Origin: a virus
DNA length: 64,000 nucleotides
IMG/VR virus record: IMGVR_UViG_3300012930_000002
Location: 7,818-71,817 of that record
Reading direction: 5' to 3' (one strand)
Part shown: one piece after another, positions 7,188-57,360 of the stretch
How the letters are laid out: each line of letters starts with the position of its first letter
How positions within the stretch are numbered: the first letter of the stretch is position 1
The notes under the pieces: model-generated
Told to the model about the DNA's origin: nothing
Databases searched by the model: none
Seen by the model: the letters and a program-made list of their open reading frames with translations, nothing else
Program-made: the position numbers and the translations under genes

Positions 7188-8117
7188 CTAAGCTCCTTGC
7201 GTACCGGCAATGCCTTCCCATCCGTCAAAGCCGACATCAAACGTCATCCAGCCGGCGGTTTTGATGGAGCGGGAGTCAAAGTCAACATCGTGCATAGTTG
7301 CGAATCGCTCTCGATGGATAACACGAAGGCGAAGGTCGGAAGGGTTGGCGATGACAAACCACGCGTCGGTGTCAGTGAGGTACTCATATACCTTAGGCGT
7401 AATAGTGCCTTGCTCGATACCGCCAGCCTTGAACGCATTGATCGTGTTGTTCGCCGTGTCGGAGCGCATCTGCGAAGACAGGATTTCAGTCATCGCAAAG
7501 GCCAGTTCAGGCGGGCCAACCAGAAACTTTGGCAAGAGTCGTTTCTTCAATCCGCGATGATTCACGAACTTGCGAAAGAGTGTGATCATGGATTCAAGTG
7601 ACGGAATGTCCAGGTCCGCATCGGTCGGCCTATTCGCCTGCGTGCCCCCGCCTACCAACGGGTGTGCTGTTGAGCATAGGATCACGCCGTCTGGTCCGAG
7701 ATACGACGAGTTGAACGCCCGGTTGTAGACGTTCGCAGACTGAACCTCGATGGTTTCCTGCGAGGATTGAGGCAGAGACGCTGTGACGGCCTTGATGATC
7801 CCGTACTTGTCATCGGCCACCATCCGGTGAGTAATACGCGTGCCAAGCGACCAATCAACTGGCGTGTAGGTCTTGTTGAACGCCTGGATTGGCGCATCGT
7901 AGCGAACGTTCTCACCTTCTGCCGTCTGATTCATCAGGCCGAGAGTAGCAATCTCGCCCTTTTGCACGATGCTGTTGGTCGTGTCTTCAACGTTGAAGAA
8001 CTGAGGATACTGTTCAGGCCGTGAAGCCTGCTCATCTGCAATTACCGCCTCAAGCGCCGGAAGCATAGTCGAGAGGTAGTAATCGGTGAACTGTAATCTA
8101 CTCGATGGTATCGCCAT
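7188..8117 (-). CDS. Major capsid protein (HK97 fold, Mu gpT-like family)
   Basis: 309 aa with EGENVRYD, ITHRMVADDKY, GPDGVILCSTAHP, PKFLVGPPEL, YLTDTDAWF; position after scaffold and decoration genes. Confidence 0.85.
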   Translation of the reverse strand: MAIPSSRLQFTDYYLSTMLPALEAVIADEQASRPEQYPQFFNVEDTTNSIVQKGEIATLGLMNQTAEGENVRYDAPIQAFNKTYTPVDWSLGTRITHRMVADDKYGIIKAVTASLPQSSQETIEVQSANVYNRAFNSSYLGPDGVILCSTAHPLVGGGTQANRPTDADLDIPSLESMITLFRKFVNHRGLKKRLLPKFLVGPPELAFAMTEILSSQMRSDTANNTINAFKAGGIEQGTITPKVYEYLTDTDAWFVIANPSDLRLRVIHRERFATMHDVDFDSRSIKTAGWMTFDVGFDGWEGIAGTQGA

Positions 8118-52549: not shown

Positions 52550-52765
52550 CTAGCCCTTCCCAACCAGCGAAATCAAGAACCACAGTAGCAGGATGCCGCC
52601 GAGCGCCACTGCAATCCAGATTGCCCAACCTCGAATTGGCTCCGGAAACTTACTGAGAAGCCACCATAGCAGCGCAGCGAACAGCACCAAGATCAGGATG
52701 ATAAGCAGGATTTCTGGCAACGTAGCCAGTGAGAACTGCGGGATGAGCAGAGCAAGCATTGCCAT
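52550..52765 (-). CDS. Small two-TM membrane protein
   Basis: Two hydrophobic helices around KFPEP; GGAGG Shine-Dalgarno. Confidence 0.7.
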   Translation of the reverse strand: MAMLALLIPQFSLATLPEILLIILILVLFAALLWWLLSKFPEPIRGWAIWIAVALGGILLLWFLISLVGKG

Positions 52766-52861
52766 TACCTCCGCTGGTGAAAATCGGACCCCCAGCGAGC
52801 GCTAAGAGTCGGGACTATCGCTTAAGGTTACTAGAGTTGGGCTGAGCTTAACACGACCGCT

Positions 52862-52978
52862 CTACACCGTCAAAGCCCAAGCTGCACGTGTCACTAGTCG
52901 CATCACCGCCAGTCCAGCAGCCGTGCAAGCCGCGAGAGCCAACCAGAACAGCACTAGGACTGCGTAGCCACGCTTCAT
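52862..52978 (-). CDS. 38-aa peptide with possible lipobox
   Basis: MKRGYAVLVLFWLALAA-C; below the ORF track length cut-off. Confidence 0.35.
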   Translation of the reverse strand: MKRGYAVLVLFWLALAACTAAGLAVMRLVTRAAWALTV

Positions 52979-52980
52979 GG

Positions 52981-53208
52981 TCACGCTTCGCCGATCAGCT
53001 GGTCAAGCTCATCATCCACGAGCTTCAGTATCTTTTGCGCCTTCTCGCCCTTCAGCTGCGGTGCTGCCTGTAGCAAAAGCGCCGGCAGAACCGGGAAGAT
53101 AAAGCTCATAAAGAAGCTGAGGAAGAAGCTGCCCGCTGATGCGGATGCTAGGTGTGTTGCGATTTGCTTTTGTGCTGCTGCTTGTTTGTCAGTTACTTTG
53201 TCGCTCAT
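52981..53208 (-). CDS. Small membrane-associated protein
   Basis: One hydrophobic segment; AGGAG Shine-Dalgarno. Confidence 0.55.
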   Translation of the reverse strand: MSDKVTDKQAAAQKQIATHLASASAGSFFLSFFMSFIFPVLPALLLQAAPQLKGEKAQKILKLVDDELDQLIGEA

Positions 53209-53408: not shown

Positions 53409-54419
53409 CTACTCAATCGTCTCAATCTGTACTATCGCATCCTTCAACACCCACGCCGTGTTGAACTCGCCCTTGAGTACCACCACACCCTCATCATTGT
53501 TCTTGATTCGCGCCTGAAATTGCAAGGCACCCGCGTTCACCGTCACCTGTCGCCCGTGCAGGTTGGGCAAGTCTACTTCAGTCGCAGCAACGATCTTGCC
53601 CGGTTTCAGCAATAGCACTCGCGCTGCAAAGGTGTGATGGTTTGGGTCGGGTGGCGGCGGGGGAGGAGGGGGAGGAGGTGCGATGAAGTCAATCACGTCG
53701 ATCAGTTGATAGCCATAGACGTGGCGAGATTGAAAGTTACCGCCCTCTAGGAAGTGCCACTTCACACGAATGATTCTGAGATATCGCCCCCAGGAGTTTA
53801 GGAAGATAGCGTGATCATTGTCTCCTAGCCCGTCATACGCGATGAAACAAAGTTGGTGATACCCCGATGTCGCGATCTCATTTGAATCCCAGCCCAGCAC
53901 AGACGGTAGCAACATTGCTACGACACAGGGTCCATTTGCCACCAAGGCCGAGGCTAAGGTCAACCGCCACGCATTAGCTACTTGGGGAGCGAACGCATAA
54001 CCCTGAATCTTCCGTATGAATCCTGTCGCCGGTTCAACAAGGCCGTAGTCACGGATATACCGTAGAGCGCGATCGGTAGAGATCCCATTTTGCCCGGTGC
54101 CGCCACAGGCGCGATACAGTGCCTCGGCGTCATACATCCGCCAAAGCCTCTCATCCTTGAAGTCCTCAATTGACTTTGCGCCACCCGAGGAATAAGCAAC
54201 GCAGGCCCCTTCACCGTCCTGATCGTAAGCCACGCCAATTGCCGCCGAGATAGACTCTTCGGTCATCTCCGCATCCACGACGATGCAGCTTGGCGGGGGC
54301 GATTCCGCGAGAACCTCTGCCGTATTGGGCTCGAGCTCAAGGTGCCAGTCGCGTAGGTCGGAGTCGCGAAACAATGCCCCGGTACCGCCCCAATTTGGAT
54401 CAAGTTGCGCTAAGTTCAT
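53409..54419 (-). CDS. Papain-like (C1) cysteine peptidase with poly-Pro linker and C-terminal domain
   Basis: DQDGEGACVAYS (Q, C), GYHQL (H), FLNSWG (N). Confidence 0.8.
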   Translation of the reverse strand: MNLAQLDPNWGGTGALFRDSDLRDWHLELEPNTAEVLAESPPPSCIVVDAEMTEESISAAIGVAYDQDGEGACVAYSSGGAKSIEDFKDERLWRMYDAEALYRACGGTGQNGISTDRALRYIRDYGLVEPATGFIRKIQGYAFAPQVANAWRLTLASALVANGPCVVAMLLPSVLGWDSNEIATSGYHQLCFIAYDGLGDNDHAIFLNSWGRYLRIIRVKWHFLEGGNFQSRHVYGYQLIDVIDFIAPPPPPPPPPPDPNHHTFAARVLLLKPGKIVAATEVDLPNLHGRQVTVNAGALQFQARIKNNDEGVVVLKGEFNTAWVLKDAIVQIETIE

Positions 54420-54891
54420 AAACTCCTCGCCACATTTTTATCTCAACCTCGCGCCGGTTTACAAGTCCCTGTACGACCTTGCCACCCGCACGTGTCCAGC
54501 GCCTCAATTGTGCTGGTATGGCAATCAGGTCTTGAGAGCGAATCAGCTTCAGCAACGTTGAGTTGAGAAAGGCGTTTGCGCCAACATTGAAGGTAAAGGA
54601 TACAAGCGCGTCAAACTGGCAGCCCAGCAGTTCACCTGTCGCCGTGCTGACAATATCCTCGACGGGCTTGATGTCCTGGGCGAGTAGCGCATCTATTTGC
54701 TCGGTGGTCAATCCCTCGCTCCAGCGCACCGGCTCACCAGCGATGTAGAGCTTGCCGCTGAATAGCTCGGACCGCGACAGCAAATGACCTACACCGATTG
54801 TCGGCAGGCCCATTACATCCTTGTACATCTTAGCGCGAGAACCTTCAAGTCGAGTGAGAACCGCTCTGCCTTCAGGTGATAGCTTCATCAT
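54400..54891 (-). CDS. Endolysin, GH24 lysozyme
   Basis: EGSRAKMYKDVMGLPTIGVGH, FDALVSFTFNVG, GLVNRREVE. Confidence 0.93.
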   Translation of the reverse strand: MMKLSPEGRAVLTRLEGSRAKMYKDVMGLPTIGVGHLLSRSELFSGKLYIAGEPVRWSEGLTTEQIDALLAQDIKPVEDIVSTATGELLGCQFDALVSFTFNVGANAFLNSTLLKLIRSQDLIAIPAQLRRWTRAGGKVVQGLVNRREVEIKMWRGVYELSAT

Positions 54892-54894
54892 TGT

Positions 54895-55062
54895 CTAGCT
54901 CTTCGCGTTCGGCACATTGTACACGCCGATGAACGCCACGACTGCTGCTGCTACTACCGTACTCCACTCAACTGGCGTGATCACTCCGTCCATAGAGGCG
55001 GTAGTGAATGCGCCGACAGCAGCAAGAACGGCGGCGAGTATAGCCTTTCGGTAGGTAGCCAT
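54895..55062 (-). CDS. Putative two-TM holin (55 aa, not in ORF track)
   Basis: MATYRKAILAAVLAAVGAFTTASMDGVITPVEWSTVVAAAVVAFIGVYNVPNAKS; AGGAG Shine-Dalgarno; adjacent to the endolysin. Confidence 0.7.
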   Translation of the reverse strand: MATYRKAILAAVLAAVGAFTTASMDGVITPVEWSTVVAAAVVAFIGVYNVPNAKS

Positions 55063-55080
55063 TCACTCTCCTGCGTATCG

Positions 55081-55318
55081 TTGACCAGCACGAGGCCCCA
55101 ACTCTTCTCACAAATTGGAATCCCACTAGCCCCGCCACGGCCCACCAACCAGCCCCAACGGTTCTACGTGCCGGTCAATATAGGTGACCGCTGCAATTTC
55201 GCTAAAAGCCTTCACGGGGAAGGCTTTTTACAGCGGTCAATTTCAAAGATAGGATGGAGACGGTGCAGAAAATACCGCCTCCATCTTTCCGTCCGGTGGA
55301 CCTTACGGACGCGACGGA
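55081..55318 (-). ncRNA. Four-hairpin structured leader upstream of the holin
   Basis: Three 12-bp stems each with a G-U pair on the minus strand, plus a 6-bp stem. Confidence 0.55.
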
Positions 55319-55332
55319 TTATCAAACTCACG

Positions 55333-55599
55333 CTACGGTGACATCTTCGCATCAATGCGTCTAGCCGTTTCTTCAATCAGCCCCCGTAGCCCATCGTGAT
55401 ACTTCATATCGCTTGTGTAATGATCGGCGCAGAGCTGTTTCATCTTATCACGCAAATCATTGAAGTCTGAAAGGTTGAAAGCACTACTAAGCAATTCTTG
55501 TCCTAAGATATCCAACACCTTCAGGTCTGCATTAATGAGCTTTTGCATTCCGCGTCCACCACCGTGATTGATAATGATTTTATCCGGGTATCCTGGCAT
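55333..55599 (-). CDS. Hypothetical protein
   Basis: AGGAG Shine-Dalgarno; 88 aa helical. Confidence 0.55.
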   Translation of the reverse strand: MPGYPDKIIINHGGGRGMQKLINADLKVLDILGQELLSSAFNLSDFNDLRDKMKQLCADHYTSDMKYHDGLRGLIEETARRIDAKMSP

Positions 55600-55608
55600 C
55601 GTATCTCC

Positions 55609-56109
55609 TTACTGTACTGGCATCTTAAATCCGTGACTCTCCAACGAGATACTAATCTGTCGATAGCGCTCATCACTCAAGGCCAGCTTCATCTCTGTCA
55701 CCTTGCGGTATTCGATAAAGTTCTCGCGAGTCTCACGTAGCTGCTCGGTCAGTACCGCATTGCTGACTCTGATTTCACCTTCGGTTGTCTTGGCAATGTA
55801 GAGCGCGGTGAACACCCATCCAAGAAACACTACGGCAATAGTGATAAACGTTCGTCCCCAAGCACCCGGACCATTACCGTTCGCGGGCTGCACCGCTGCC
55901 GTTTGATTCGACAGTTTCGTCAGCAGCATAACTGACCCTGAGATATTGTGAACCATATCCCTAAGATCGGCTATGTCGGCCAGTTCCTGTTTAGTCATCG
56001 GCTCACCGTGATGTTCGTCACTATTCTGACGCGGGTGCAACTTTTTGGTAATCGGTTCCTCACGCTGGCTTATTTTACCTGTCGGAAAGTCTGCCGTTGT
56101 TGCGCTCAT
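55609..56109 (-). CDS. Single-TM coiled-coil protein (lysis region)
   Basis: TM FITIAVVFLGWVFTALYI followed by a coiled coil. Confidence 0.6.
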   Translation of the reverse strand: MSATTADFPTGKISQREEPITKKLHPRQNSDEHHGEPMTKQELADIADLRDMVHNISGSVMLLTKLSNQTAAVQPANGNGPGAWGRTFITIAVVFLGWVFTALYIAKTTEGEIRVSNAVLTEQLRETRENFIEYRKVTEMKLALSDERYRQISISLESHGFKMPVQ

Positions 56110-56146
56110 TGCACACTCTCATTTCTCCAAGCTGCTCACTGCGTCC

Positions 56147-56404
56147 TCAATGTGGCTTCGTAATAAAATACAGAATGATACCGACGATCAACGATCCGCC
56201 TAATCCAGCCACAAACCCACCCGTCGCGGCCTTAACCTTAAGCGTCGTTATCTCCGTCCATATCTGGCGCATCTCTGTATTACGCAAGCCGTCAATCTTA
56301 GCGTTACAGGCCGCGACCTCCCCTGTCAACCGCACCAGCTCGGCCAAAATGAGCTTGCGATACACGGTCCAACCCTCTACGCCGCCTTCAAGTTCTTCTG
56401 GCAT
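56147..56404 (-). CDS. Coiled coil plus C-terminal TM protein (holin/XhlA-like)
   Basis: W..YRKLILAELVRL...EITTLKVKA followed by GGFVAGLGGSLIVGIILYF. Confidence 0.55.
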   Translation of the reverse strand: MPEELEGGVEGWTVYRKLILAELVRLTGEVAACNAKIDGLRNTEMRQIWTEITTLKVKAATGGFVAGLGGSLIVGIILYFITKPH

Positions 56405-57071
56405 CAGTTCCCACCTCTTCCGGCAGTACAACTGGACGGCGAATTACTGCCATACCATAGATTCCGCTTGGGGCAACCAGCGGTGAGAGATTAATCTCCA
56501 CAGGGAAGATACGGTTATGCTTGTCTTGGCCTTCGAGCCTCAGCCCAATGCCCATCGGTCGCGCTCTTAGTTCGCTGAACCAACGAGCGATATGCTGGTC
56601 GTGTATTGTTCGCCTGTCTTCTGGGATTAGCATCGAGAGTCGTTTACCGATTACTTCGCTTGGATGATACCCAAATAAAAACGTCGCCTGTTCGTTAAAA
56701 ACTATGACCGCCGTAGACGCGTTAATCACAACTAGCGCATCCGGCAATCGCTCAACTATCTGCATATAGAGTTCGGGTTCAAGTAAGCTATTGGCCAATT
56801 GGCTTAACCTCTTAAGATTTGGCGAAGGGCTAGGAACATTGGGCACATTAACTAAGGTATCATCCATAGCTGGCCTCTCAAATCCCGTTATAATCCATGA
56901 GGCTCCTGCCAACACGAAAGCAATTACCAATGCCACGCTTGCGGCGAGTATCATCCAACGAATAGGAATCGGCAAGCCCCAGGAGCGAGCAACGAGCGCA
57001 TAAATGAAGAACAGACCGCCCACTACTGCCAGACCGCCACTCATGATCGTCAGTTGTTGCTTGAGCCTCAT
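56388..57071 (-). CDS. Two-TM membrane protein with a FixL-like PAS domain and no output domain
   Basis: IVERLPDALVVIN...IVFNEQATFLFGYHPSEVIGKRLSMLIPEDRRTIHDQHI...RPMGIG..LEG.DK....FPVEINLSP. Confidence 0.85.
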   Translation of the reverse strand: MRLKQQLTIMSGGLAVVGGLFFIYALVARSWGLPIPIRWMILAASVALVIAFVLAGASWIITGFERPAMDDTLVNVPNVPSPSPNLKRLSQLANSLLEPELYMQIVERLPDALVVINASTAVIVFNEQATFLFGYHPSEVIGKRLSMLIPEDRRTIHDQHIARWFSELRARPMGIGLRLEGQDKHNRIFPVEINLSPLVAPSGIYGMAVIRRPVVLPEEVGTDARRT

Positions 57072-57090
57072 TCAACCGTGCGCGCCTCAC

Positions 57091-57360
57091 TCAATTCAGA
57101 CAAAACCCACTCTCGATCAACATATCAATCCACGAGCACGAGCCGCAGTGAGTAGCACCATACGCGCATTTCAACGTGCGGCTATCGTAATCACATTGAT
57201 TGTAATCACCGCCACCCGCGATACAAGCAGAGTAGTACGCCGTAGATGCTTGCTGTGCAGCCTCCATGCAATCGCCGCAGGAATCGCGGGCAAGGGCGGT
57301 ACGATCTGTTGGTGCAAAGAAGAGTACAAGAACAACAAGTAACAGGGCTATTCGTTTCAT
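57091..57360 (-). CDS. Secreted Cys-rich small protein
   Basis: Signal peptide MKRIALLLVVLVLFF...ALA; eight Cys in the mature part. Confidence 0.7.
   Translation of the reverse strand: MKRIALLLVVLVLFFAPTDRTALARDSCGDCMEAAQQASTAYYSACIAGGGDYNQCDYDSRTLKCAYGATHCGSCSWIDMLIESGFCLN

Follow-up and report, generated by a model that had tools for sequence, protein, structure and literature searches.

We describe, in an uncultured 72-kb phage, a 227-aa PAS protein (the sensor; minus strand, 56388 to 57071) that by fold and relatives belongs to a heme-binding class of PAS domains and that carries two predicted transmembrane (TM) helices and no covalent output domain. Its gene overlaps that of a small tail-anchored membrane protein (the partner; minus strand, 56147 to 56404). 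We propose that the sensor is a heme-based redox or gas sensor that uses the partner to influence a membrane event late in infection, probably when lysis occurs, and we put the probability of this reading at roughly 45%. All coordinates refer to the 64,000-nucleotide stretch of phage DNA that was analyzed (the window); comparison loci from other phages are designated by L numbers.

RESULTS

A predicted membrane-tethered PAS protein without an output domain

Residues 101 to 207 of the 227-aa open reading frame (ORF) matched the Pfam families PAS (3.1e-13), PAS_9 (1.9e-10), and PAS_4 (2.1e-6). In the AlphaFold2 model of the whole sensor (mean pLDDT, 79.6), helices span residues 2 to 30, 37 to 62, 84 to 95, and 99 to 106, and the PAS core continues up to residue 211. 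A hydropathy scan placed TM segments at residues 12 to 28 and 40 to 56; model and scan together predict two N-terminal TM helices at residues ~10 to 29 and ~38 to 62 (56886 to 57044, minus strand). The PAS core (residues 99 to 211; 56439 to 56777, minus strand) includes His157 (56601 to 56603) and Met173 (56553 to 56555) and is preceded by a short N-terminal helix, NLKRLSQLANSLL (residues ~84 to 96; 56784 to 56822, minus strand; helix 84 to 95 of the model), which we refer to as the adaptor helix. No covalent output domain (kinase, EAL/GGDEF, or HTH) is present: the ORF ends 16 residues past the PAS core, and Pfam detected no further domain. The original prediction, made from the sequence of this stretch, had described just such a two-TM membrane PAS protein lacking an output domain, and these results bear it out.

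The 2-TM extension was found in none of 12 relatives and in none of 10 viral heme-PAS loci. An internal ATG at Met69 (56865 to 56867, minus strand), with GAGAGG read from the sequence 6 nt upstream, is a possible second start that would give a soluble 159-aa form, and one relative (P0003) starts near an MDD motif equivalent to the Met69 region. The sensor may be made in two forms, one anchored (from Met1) and one soluble (from Met69). Dual-start products are a feature of classical holin genes. Among the heme-PAS relatives examined, the sensor of the window is distinguished by its predicted fusion to two TM helices and by a possible second start.

The PAS domain falls in the FG214/FixL/DosP class

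When the family profile was searched against the PDB, 26 sequences were matched, and the best 14 (8e-27 to 3.8e-16) were all heme domains of FG214, DosP, and FixL. The next match followed at 3.2e-6, which sets other PAS domains ten orders of magnitude apart in E value. Foldseek searches with the sensor model gave a probability of 1.00 to many PAS structures; ranks 1 to 33 were all heme PAS domains, and the first other PAS domain was a LOV domain at 5.9e-7. The best match by both sequence (8e-27) and structure (8.8e-11) was FG214 of Fimbriimonas ginsengisoli (PDB 10jx), which shares with the sensor the signature H-x-x-H ... R-x-M-G. The oxygen sensors FixL and Escherichia coli DosP (EcDOS) belong to the same PAS subclass (E values of 1e-16 to 6e-21; Foldseek ranks 2 to 33). 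By fold and relatives, the PAS domain of the sensor is thus a member of the heme-binding FG214/FixL/DosP class and is predicted to bind heme. Its architecture differs from those of the characterized members. FG214 is, in the excerpted source, a soluble HTH-PAS one-component transcription factor, whereas the sensor lacks an HTH, bears two predicted TM helices, and is coupled to a partner in the membrane; the kinase output of FixL and the phosphodiesterase output of DosP are likewise missing from it. Our literature search found no description of a stand-alone heme PAS protein in a phage.

The expectation that a His occupies the heme-ligating site of FixL-type PAS domains was supported by alignment. 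In the profile alignment, sensor residues His157, His160, and Met173 correspond to FG214 His156, His159, and Met172, and His157, within LIPEDRRTIHDQH, falls at DosP position 77, the alignment position of the proximal His (on the F-alpha helix) of FixL and DosP. His157 was present in 23/23 phage or stand-alone rows and Met173 in 22/23; Val replaces Met173 in the viral relative L022. In FG214, His156 has been assigned as the proximal heme ligand, a dithionite-soaked crystal had His156-Met172 coordination, and the ferric distal ligand was His175 (bioRxiv 10.64898/2026.03.15.711900, in the excerpts used here). Judging from this alignment, His157 is likely the proximal iron ligand of the sensor, and Met173 is likely the distal one. 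On the distal side, Gly176 stands in place of FG214 His175, Ile175 in place of DosP Met95, and Leu177 in place of DosP Arg97, the two DosP positions being those that we take to be the distal-side residues of that characterized member. With Gly176 at the FG214 His175 position and Leu177 at the DosP Arg97 position, the coordination chemistry is not simply transferable from a known protein; the combination of Leu177 with the near-invariant Met173 suggests that the sensor is six-coordinate and responds to redox state or to ligand displacement. The label “FixL-like” is apt for the class, in which the best PDB and Foldseek matches are heme PAS domains, but a FixL-like O2 mechanism appears doubtful in view of Leu177 and Met173.

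Descent from stand-alone PAS proteins

The closest relatives of the sensor were stand-alone PAS proteins (45 to 70% identity), compared to 30 to 42% identity for multi-domain proteins. In the tree, the sensor lay within the stand-alone clade (support, 99/97), and all 11 multi-domain rows lay beyond a single branch (87/86; recovered in 91% of bootstrap trees). The stand-alone lineage ranges in GC content from 41 to 69%. Cellular relatives of the PAS subfamily, Acidobacteriota proteins included, serve as the sensory part of histidine kinases, of a sigma-54 activator, and of a GGDEF protein. The original prediction had named as a possible refutation that the gene was taken from a host kinase recently and truncated; such an origin is contradicted by the nesting of the sensor among stand-alone PAS proteins at 45 to 70% identity, from which, on this phylogeny, it descends. 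The region had no blastn match in the GenBank phage collection, and tblastn against that collection gave no match for the sensor PAS domain, the PAS domain of L008, or five members of the partner family.

Sensor genes overlap those of a tail-anchored partner

The partner has 85 aa when read from its ATG (94 aa from a TTG at 56431) and consists of a predicted cytoplasmic N-terminal helix (GWTVYRKLILAELVRL...), an LKVKA motif, and a Gly-rich C-terminal TM segment. The partner and PAS genes share 17 nt, and GAGGTG lies 7 nt before the ATG of the partner. The partner family is a large, uncharacterized phage family of 1957 representative clusters; for the window partner and ten partner-type proteins of other loci, Pfam and PHROG gave nothing significant. 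Sensor and partner genes overlapped by 1 to 29 nt in 10/10 pairs (the window, L002, L003, L022, L035, L061, L065, L076, L084, and L091). The slot upstream of the partner is occupied by a heme PAS protein in L022, L023, and L035, by a different type of PAS protein in L076 and L091 (Pfam PAS_3 in two members, with PDB matches to non-heme PAS domains), by a 397-aa multi-PAS protein in L061, and by proteins with weakly cupin-like domains in L065 and L084; the cupin label was not upheld for L065, where the match reached an E value of only 0.033. The gene overlap in all ten pairs and the presence of unrelated sensor domains in the same slot support the idea that the sensor acts via the partner membrane protein, presumably by binding it.

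A motif describing the adaptor helix, written as a regular expression after the data had been seen and with the window's own copy one residue off, was present in 8/10 partner-linked sensors, including non-heme PAS and cupin-like ones, compared to 0/6 heme-PAS proteins whose neighboring partner is of another type, anchored at its N terminus, and 22/1006 background ORFs. For the terminase-portal lineage described below, the C-terminal tail of the terminase was considered as a carrier of the adaptor helix, and the motif was not found there. A co-fold of PAS residues 78 to 216 with partner residues 1 to 59 and heme scored 0.02 and was given no weight either way. The proposal that output runs through partner membrane proteins thus gains from the overlaps and the modular slot as far as the protein at 56147 to 56404 is concerned; no link was found for the 166-aa and 88-aa proteins encoded next to it or for the 89-aa protein encoded upstream of the sensor.

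Genomic setting of the partner family and comparison with XhlA

In a search run from a 5-row alignment, partner-family genes lay between those for the terminase large subunit (phrog_2, 1.5e-48) and the portal protein (phrog_213, 2.7e-77) in 48/71 IMG/VR loci, which come from a small number of lineages (overall, 33 clusters at 90% identity) and so are not 48 independent observations. At 18 other partner loci, the 147 neighboring ORFs were dominated by head-completion, capsid, portal, and tail-completion genes and included one lysozyme gene and one holin gene. In L006 and L007, genes for a PAS protein and a TM coiled-coil protein lie directly upstream of the terminase gene.

The partner invites comparison with the co-holins XhlA (of PBSX) and SPP1 gp24.1, proteins of ~80 to 90 aa with a single C-terminal TM segment that are described as working alongside an endolysin and a holin with two TM segments and as being lethal only in combination (PMC6316719, excerpt). 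Within 1.5 kb, the window similarly encodes the 85-aa tail-anchored protein, a 55-aa two-helix protein resembling holins, and a lysozyme, and the partner and gp24.1 are alike in being small with a single C-terminal TM segment. An XhlA cluster of the ESM Atlas scored 0.93 against the partner (179 shared features), and 6/150 partner-family members matched “hemolysin” PHROGs that gp24.1 also matches (phrog_1193, five members; phrog_937, one). Against these likenesses stand the frequent location of the family between terminase and portal genes and the negative Pfam and profile comparisons: PF10779 (XhlA) was absent among the 25 families listed of the 29 found for 150 partner-family members (each of the others having at most one member), and hhalign of the partner family with gp24.1 gave a probability of 4.6%. 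On the Pfam and hhalign results, membership of the partner in the XhlA family was rejected.

Gene neighborhood and proximity to lysis genes

The minus-strand gene order from an 8-Cys protein through the lysis genes was confirmed from the ORFs. The upstream neighbor of the sensor gene encodes an 89-aa protein (57091 to 57360, minus strand) with a signal-peptide-like N terminus and 8 Cys residues, for which no Pfam or PHROG family was found. Beyond the partner lies the gene for a 166-aa protein (55609 to 56109, minus strand) made up of an ~85-aa N-terminal part, one central TM segment, and an ~60-aa helical C-terminal part; Pfam and PHROG gave nothing significant for it, and the ESM Atlas gave hypothetical clusters only. 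A 154-aa protein of like architecture follows the partner in L002, with no sequence similarity between the two. An 88-aa protein (55333 to 55599, minus strand), with no Pfam or PHROG family, is followed by a 270-nt intergenic region (55063 to 55332, minus strand) that separates the sensor unit from the holin and endolysin genes. The predicted fold of this gap (-115 kcal/mol; z = -5.04; 0/200 shuffles as good) agrees with the earlier suggestion of a structured RNA, and no Rfam family was matched. A promoter and terminator scan found no consensus minus-strand site in 55063 to 55332, and the window as a whole yielded neither a tRNA nor an Rfam match. Next come the genes for the 55-aa holin-like protein (54895 to 55062, minus strand), which has two hydrophobic helices and matched phrog_17055 at 2.5e-8 and the holin family phrog_565 at only 0.033, and for a 163-aa endolysin (54400 to 54891, minus strand; Pfam Phage_lysozyme, 1.7e-33; phrog_7 endolysin, 3e-40). 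Overlapping the end of the lysozyme gene is that of a 336-aa protein (53409 to 54419, minus strand) with a poly-Pro linker and papain-like motifs recognized by eye. “C1 peptidase,” as this protein had been called, was the weakest of the earlier labels: neither Pfam nor PHROG gave a match, and the PDB match to a cysteine proteinase (E = 0.64) was nonsignificant. Two genes and the structured gap thus lie between the sensor-partner unit and the holin gene.

Across 11 phage loci with a heme-PAS gene, an endolysin gene lay within ~3 kb of it in four (the window, 1.5 kb; L002, 1.1 kb [an amidase]; L022, 1.8 kb; L009, 3.0 kb), against a chance expectation of ~1.1 loci (P ~0.02). The endolysins of L022 and L009 are homologous (3e-29). 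In L035, a gene matching Pfam Phage_holin_10 (63.9 bits) lies 460 nt upstream, and in L076, which has a non-heme sensor, a lysozyme homologue lies 0.7 kb away; the latter was the sole match when eight window proteins were compared by phmmer with all locus ORFs. No lysis gene was recognized within 5 kb in 6/11 heme-PAS loci. The window's own genome has no Phage_holin_10 match, and assignment of the L003 partner to that family was rejected at 15.8 bits, a score below the cutoff of a kind that control genomes also give. The survey therefore supports the postulated linkage to lysis in part: an endolysin gene in 4/11 loci and a holin gene in one more speak for it, and the loci that lack a recognized lysis gene, along with the mostly terminase-portal location of the partner family, speak against it.

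DISCUSSION

We hypothesize that the two N-terminal helices hold a cytoplasmic heme-b-type PAS domain at the inner membrane, a topology predicted from the sequence. A six-coordinate heme would report redox state, or its distal ligand would be displaced by O2, CO, or NO. Output would be by protein-protein contact, with no enzymatic or DNA-binding part: sensor and 85-aa partner would form a translationally coupled two-gene unit in which the short helix at residues ~84 to 96 docks the cytoplasmic N-terminal helix of the partner. Through the partner, the sensor would modulate a late membrane event, most probably holin triggering and with it the time of lysis. A known parallel is the single-TM holin whose cytoplasmic domain is the target of a cytoplasmic regulator. 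In phiKZ, gp143, which has no TM segment, acts on the cytoplasmic N-terminal domain of the single-TM (N-in) holin gp142 and shifts its triggering time, and T4 RIII and holin T are cited alongside this pair (PMC12894885, excerpt). The topology of gp142 resembles that predicted for the partner (an N-terminal cytoplasmic helix and one TM segment). In contrast, gp143 and the sensor have no sequence relation, the excerpted source attaches no known sensor cofactor to gp143, and the sensor is itself predicted to be membrane anchored. Holin and antiholin regulators such as T4 RI, RIII, and phiKZ gp143 form a class defined by function, namely holin binding and a shift in triggering time, without a sequence family. 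A phage-encoded PAS receptor that reads a chemical cue has been described in VqmA of vibriophage VP882 (PMC8284805); unlike the sensor, VqmA is, as presented in the excerpted source, a quorum-sensing transcription factor with a PAS and a DNA-binding domain, and it is neither a heme PAS protein nor membrane bound nor coupled to a partner. A more general scheme is possible, and we offer it tentatively: tailed phages would use interchangeable sensors (heme PAS, other PAS, and cupin-like) that dock by a common helix on a tail-anchored, holin-like protein and so gate lysis by the redox, oxygen, or metabolic state of the host, with the window's version bearing a 2-TM extension and possibly occurring in two forms (Met1 anchored, Met69 soluble).

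The location of the partner family bears on what the unit controls. Its genes lie between terminase and portal genes at 48/71 loci, head and tail morphogenesis genes dominate the neighborhoods of the 18 other loci, and the PAS and TM coiled-coil genes of L006 and L007 directly precede the terminase gene, all of which would fit control of a membrane step other than lysis, such as anchoring or gating of head assembly or DNA packaging, with the partner as a membrane tether. The 48 loci derive from few lineages, however, and sensor-bearing loci often adjoin lysis genes (the window, L002, L022, L035, and L076). Because packaging or tail genes are common neighbors of lysis cassettes, position alone does not discriminate between the two. 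We regard a non-lysis step as unlikely. Somewhat less likely still is a PAS domain that has no ligand, or one that is not heme, and that regulates through the partner all the same. Heme binding is predicted from alignment, L022 has Val at the Met173 position, and other phages fill the slot with non-heme PAS or cupin-like domains; yet His157 and Met173 are conserved in 23/23 and 22/23 phage or stand-alone rows, and the top sequence and structure matches are all proven heme proteins, ten orders of magnitude ahead.

We consider two further readings improbable. PAS domains commonly dimerize, and cellular relatives of this PAS subfamily supply the sensory part of histidine kinases and of the sigma-54 activator and GGDEF protein mentioned above; the sensor could then heterodimerize with FixL-like PAS kinases or regulators of the host and blunt host redox signaling during infection. 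This decoy function, an idea of the original prediction, gained nothing from the comparative data: strict coupling to a phage-encoded partner and a partner-specific helix on unrelated sensor folds suggest a phage-internal output, the gene lies among late tail and lysis genes rather than early host-takeover genes, and the stand-alone lineage, diverse in GC content (41 to 69%), is old. Of similarly low probability is a chemical role for a membrane-tethered heme protein (O2 or NO scavenging, electron transfer, or heme sequestration); a membrane-anchored, probable heme binder lacking an output domain would suit it, but the known members of the heme-PAS class are all sensors, and the non-heme sensor domains in the same slot of other phages fit signaling. 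We give very little credence to the view that the gene is a piece of a host sensor kinase, truncated and acquired recently, that has no function in its own right. Multi-domain sensors of hosts commonly contain this PAS subfamily, but the nearest relatives are stand-alone proteins, and the tree separates the sensor's clade (99/97) from all 11 multi-domain rows. We therefore favor a heme sensor that acts through the partner on lysis timing.

When to lyse the host is the chief life-history decision that a lytic phage makes, and the inputs known to bear on it are the accumulation of holin, the membrane potential, and, for a few phages, signals of superinfection. If our proposal is correct, a heme sensor on a lysis-type membrane protein would give a phage a direct readout of the host's oxygen or redox state, and a heme PAS domain would have as its output a small membrane protein in place of an enzyme or DNA-binding domain. 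Oxygen and redox state vary sharply in soils and sediments. The phages that carry heme-PAS genes seem to live in soils and sediments.

Gene layout and domain structure of the sensor

The source record (71,817 bp, with the window covering bases 7818-71817) has direct terminal repeats and a completeness estimate of 100%. A run of minus-strand genes extends from about 64000 to 52500; upstream of the genes described here, it encodes a protein of 1443 aa, small proteins, and a tail-fibre-like protein of 308 aa. The ORF layout bore out the gene order of the original prediction, in which a membrane PAS protein (the sensor) and an overlapping small membrane protein (the partner) precede holin and lysozyme genes. 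Between the sensor-partner unit and the holin-like gene (54895-55062, minus strand) lie two genes and a structured gap of 270 nt. This gap (55063-55332, minus strand) contains several strong hairpins (MFE, -115 kcal/mol; z, -5.04); no Rfam family matched it, and a simple scan called no terminator there.

Pfam matched PAS (3.1e-13), PAS_9, and PAS_4 across residues 101 to 207 of the 227-aa sensor (56388-57071, minus strand), and the scan found no domain besides PAS. In the AlphaFold2 model, built from 13 input sequences (mean pLDDT, 79.6), a disordered linker joins two helices (residues 2-30 and 37-62) to two more (84-95 and 99-106), and the PAS core extends to residue 211; a hydropathy scan placed membrane segments at 12-28 and 40-56. 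Together, these results confirm a PAS protein with two transmembrane (2-TM) helices and no output domain. The Met1 ATG (57071) is preceded by GAGG at ~14 nt, and an internal ATG for Met69 (56867) is preceded by GAGAGG at 6 nt. Met69 is a possible second start, which would yield a 159-aa soluble protein resembling the relatives of the sensor; P0003, a stand-alone relative, starts near an MDD motif equivalent to the Met69 region.

The PAS domain belongs to the heme class

Searching 5.8 billion proteins by word index returned 12 relatives of 134-157 aa. Their alignments to the sensor, at 45-70% identity, were confined to the PAS part (query coverage, 56-62%), and the membrane extension was absent from all 12. 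When a profile of the sensor and these relatives (13 sequences) was compared with the PDB, 26 distinct sequences matched; the best 14 of the 26 (8e-27 to 3.8e-16) were the FG214 PAS domain (10jx), Escherichia coli DosP (EcDOS), and FixL, and the fifteenth match was at 3.2e-6. Foldseek with the sensor model likewise ranked FG214, FixL, and DosP at positions 1 to 33, the first other PAS being a LOV domain (5.9e-7).

FG214 is described as binding heme b through the proximal ligand His156, with His175 as distal ligand of the ferric form and Met172 as an alternative on the distal side; the account includes His156-Met172 coordination in a dithionite-soaked crystal (bioRxiv 10.64898/2026.03.15.711900). 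In the profile alignment, His157, His160, and Met173 of the sensor correspond to His156, His159, and Met172 of FG214, whereas distal His175 is replaced by Gly176. Aligned with DosP, His157 falls at residue 77, the proximal His77, and Ile175 and Leu177 fall at Met95 and Arg97, which a published study reportedly names as distal-side residues. His157, Arg171, and Gly174 are present in all 23 phage and stand-alone rows, and His160 and Met173 are each present in 22. The histidine that the original prediction had singled out as the heme ligand was therefore the right residue, and we infer that the window's PAS binds heme. With Met173 conserved and an equivalent of Arg97 missing, the domain is more likely to be six-coordinate and to sense redox state or ligand displacement, in the manner of FG214, than to trap O2 as FixL does.

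Origin of the PAS domain and its membrane extension

In cellular genomes, this PAS subfamily acts as the sensor module of larger proteins, among them kinases of 405 aa and 791 aa (the latter a hybrid kinase), a 372-aa PAS-GGDEF protein, and a sigma-54 activator of 1538 aa encoded in a Blastocatellia MAG; cellular stand-alone members (168-174 aa) lie on Acetobacteraceae-type MAG contigs with no phage context. A sensor lacking an output domain might be a recent, truncated capture of such a kinase, and a search for longer relatives did return seven multi-domain kinases (30-42% identity). We built a maximum-likelihood tree from 37 PAS domains, for which the bootstrap was not fully settled. In it, one branch (87/86; found in 91% of bootstrap trees) set apart all 11 multi-domain rows returned by the searches. 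The window's PAS fell in a well-supported clade (99/97) with four stand-alone proteins, the nearest being P0002 (69% identity). This position contradicts recent capture of a truncated kinase and implies that the 2-TM extension was probably a recent addition to a stand-alone lineage. Gene fusion is a plausible origin for the extension, because at some other loci the PAS gene is directly preceded by a gene for a small membrane protein, and one of this kind may have supplied it. At viral locus L004, for example, a 49-aa strongly hydrophobic ORF (7812-7961) directly precedes a stand-alone heme-PAS gene.

Structure matches in BFVD included several 170-240-aa proteins that aligned over ~200 columns of the sensor model, N-terminal helices included. 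Besides Cellulophaga phages phi19:1 and phi18:3, the sources were uncultured Caudovirales, some of whose proteins bear the name "PAS domain", and the matches suggest that other membrane-tethered PAS proteins may exist in phages, cultured ones included.

The partner is a member of a large family of tail-anchored proteins

The partner gene (56147-56404, minus strand) starts at an ATG at 56404, with GAGGTG 7 nt upstream, and overlaps the PAS gene by 17 nt. Its 85-aa product carries a helix at the N terminus (GWTVYRKLILAELVRL...) and a glycine-rich membrane helix at the C terminus, together with an LKVKA motif. Homologues overlap and follow a heme-PAS gene in the viral loci L002 (47% identity, 8e-14), L003, L022, and L035, and two metagenome homologues were found. 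A five-member profile matched 1957 representative clusters at E <= 1e-3, and 169 at <= 1e-10, among 1.84 billion proteins, with almost all members being 64-125 aa long; the partner therefore belongs to a large family, one without a Pfam model.

Among 150 members, 34 matched phrog_1103 (unknown function), and the "hemolysin"-labelled phrog_1193 and phrog_937 were matched by 5 and 1, respectively. SPP1 gp24.1, described as an XhlA homologue and co-holin (PMC6316719), matches phrog_689 (holin), phrog_1193 (2e-9), and phrog_937, and in an ESM Atlas search with the partner, an XhlA cluster ranked 26th, sharing 179 features with a score of 0.93. Despite these bridging matches, membership in the XhlA family was not supported, since PF10779 (XhlA) was not among the families listed for the 150 members and hhalign of the partner family against gp24.1 was negative; the resemblance is thus one of architecture. 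In that respect, the closest analogue is the XhlA/gp24.1 co-holin, described as harmless alone and lethal with a 2-TM holin (PMC6316719).

An N-terminal helix may accompany the partner across different sensors

We surveyed 71 partner-family loci in IMG/VR. The heme-PAS profile matched upstream ORFs strongly in three (L022, L035, and L023, the contig of L002) and weakly in one (L061, a 397-aa multi-PAS protein). At L076 and L091/L092, the overlapping upstream ORF encodes a different PAS type: two members match Pfam PAS_3, and the best PDB matches of the L076 sensor are diguanylate-cyclase and ARNT-type PAS domains, not heme PAS. At two further loci, the upstream ORF has a weak cupin-like label (L065:3465-3998 and L084:3502-4002) and the same N-terminal helix as the PAS proteins found in this slot.

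All of these slot proteins have an L-x-x-L-R-x-L-T-x-x-L-type helix at the N terminus. A regular expression for it, written after inspection of the sensors, matched 8 of 10 sensors (missing L003 and, by one residue, the window's NLKRLSQLANSL), 10 of 12 stand-alone relatives from the protein search, and none of six heme-PAS proteins (at L004, L005, L007, L008, L009, and L010) whose neighbouring membrane protein is of another kind and anchored by its N terminus; the background was 22 of 1006 ORFs. This suggests that the N-terminal helix, not the PAS core, accompanies the tail-anchored partner, a strong hint rather than a test because the motif was defined post hoc. The proposal that the sensor acts through a partner membrane protein gained support for the product of 56147-56404 from the overlapping genes and the different sensor domains that share one slot.

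Proximity to lysis genes is partly conserved

The original prediction tied the sensor to lysis timing by gene position. Within 5 kb of the PAS gene at eight distinct viral loci (86 ORFs), we found one Amidase_2, one Peptidase_M15_4, and one GH5 hydrolase/tail protein. After inclusion of the window and L022, a recognised endolysin lay within ~3 kb of the heme-PAS gene at 4 of 11 loci: the lysozyme in the window (54400-54891, minus strand; 1.5 kb), an amidase at L002 (1.1 kb), a 208-aa protein at L022 that matches the L009 endolysin at 3e-29 (1.8 kb), and the phrog_17001 endolysin at L009 itself (3.0 kb). Contig sizes predict ~1.1 such loci by chance, with P(>=4) being 0.018 for a limit of 3.1 kb and 0.084 for one of 5 kb; the distance threshold was picked post hoc. 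At L035, the heme-PAS gene has a Pfam Phage_holin_10 gene (about 791-943; 63.9 bits) 460 nt upstream of it, and at L076 a lysozyme homologue lies 0.7 kb from the sensor-partner pair. Against this, the within-5-kb scan recognised no lytic gene near the remaining six heme-PAS loci, and in 48 of the 71 partner loci (in the range L024-L092), a large group of short viral contigs, the partner gene lies between the gene for a terminase large subunit of ~552 aa and that for a portal protein of ~600 aa. The 71 loci form 33 clusters at 90%, and those 48 span few lineages. Neighbours in 18 other partner loci (147 ORFs) were mostly head and tail genes. The two genes and the structured gap that lie between the unit and the holin-like gene in the window also count against a link. 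A link to lysis is thus plausible and only partly conserved.

Proposed mechanism

We propose that the PAS domain is cytoplasmic, because of the two helices and the need for heme insertion, and that it would hold heme through His157 and Met173. The sensor's N-terminal helix may dock on the cytoplasmic helix of the partner and thereby alter the partner's capacity to act in the membrane. [quoted passage not shown] We put the probability that the domain is a heme-type PAS and works as a functional unit with the tail-anchored protein at about 0.8; the whole chain, from heme sensor through partner to lysis timing, falls a little short of even odds. The rival proposal, that the sensor is a decoy interfering with host PAS kinases, was not supported by the data. 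The original observation was correct and its interpretation partly right, as to a heme-type sensor and the link to a partner. No paper on a stand-alone heme PAS in a phage turned up in our literature searches; nearest in concept is the PAS-containing VqmA of phage VP882. The feature would be a heme-PAS with a small phage membrane protein as its proposed output, the sensor itself being membrane anchored too.

Other genes of the region

A 336-aa protein (53409-54419, minus strand), whose gene overlaps the end of the lysozyme gene, has a ten-proline run and a C-terminal domain of ~80 aa. It had no Pfam or PHROG match; papain-like motifs were seen by eye, the best hit in a PDB sequence search had an E value of 0.64, and the protein could be a second lytic enzyme. 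After the lysis enzymes, 52550-53208 (minus strand) encodes three small membrane proteins: one of 75 aa with a TM segment and a helical tail, one of 71 aa with two to three hydrophobic helices, and one of 40 aa with a lipobox-like LALAAC, whose ORF overlaps the gene of the 75-aa protein by 4 nt. The 75-aa and 40-aa proteins are a possible i-/o-spanin pair. The nearest ESM Atlas clusters for the partner and for the protein encoded at 55609-56109 (minus strand) are hypothetical proteins from viruses and Acidobacteriota, a weak hint at Acidobacteriota as the host phylum.
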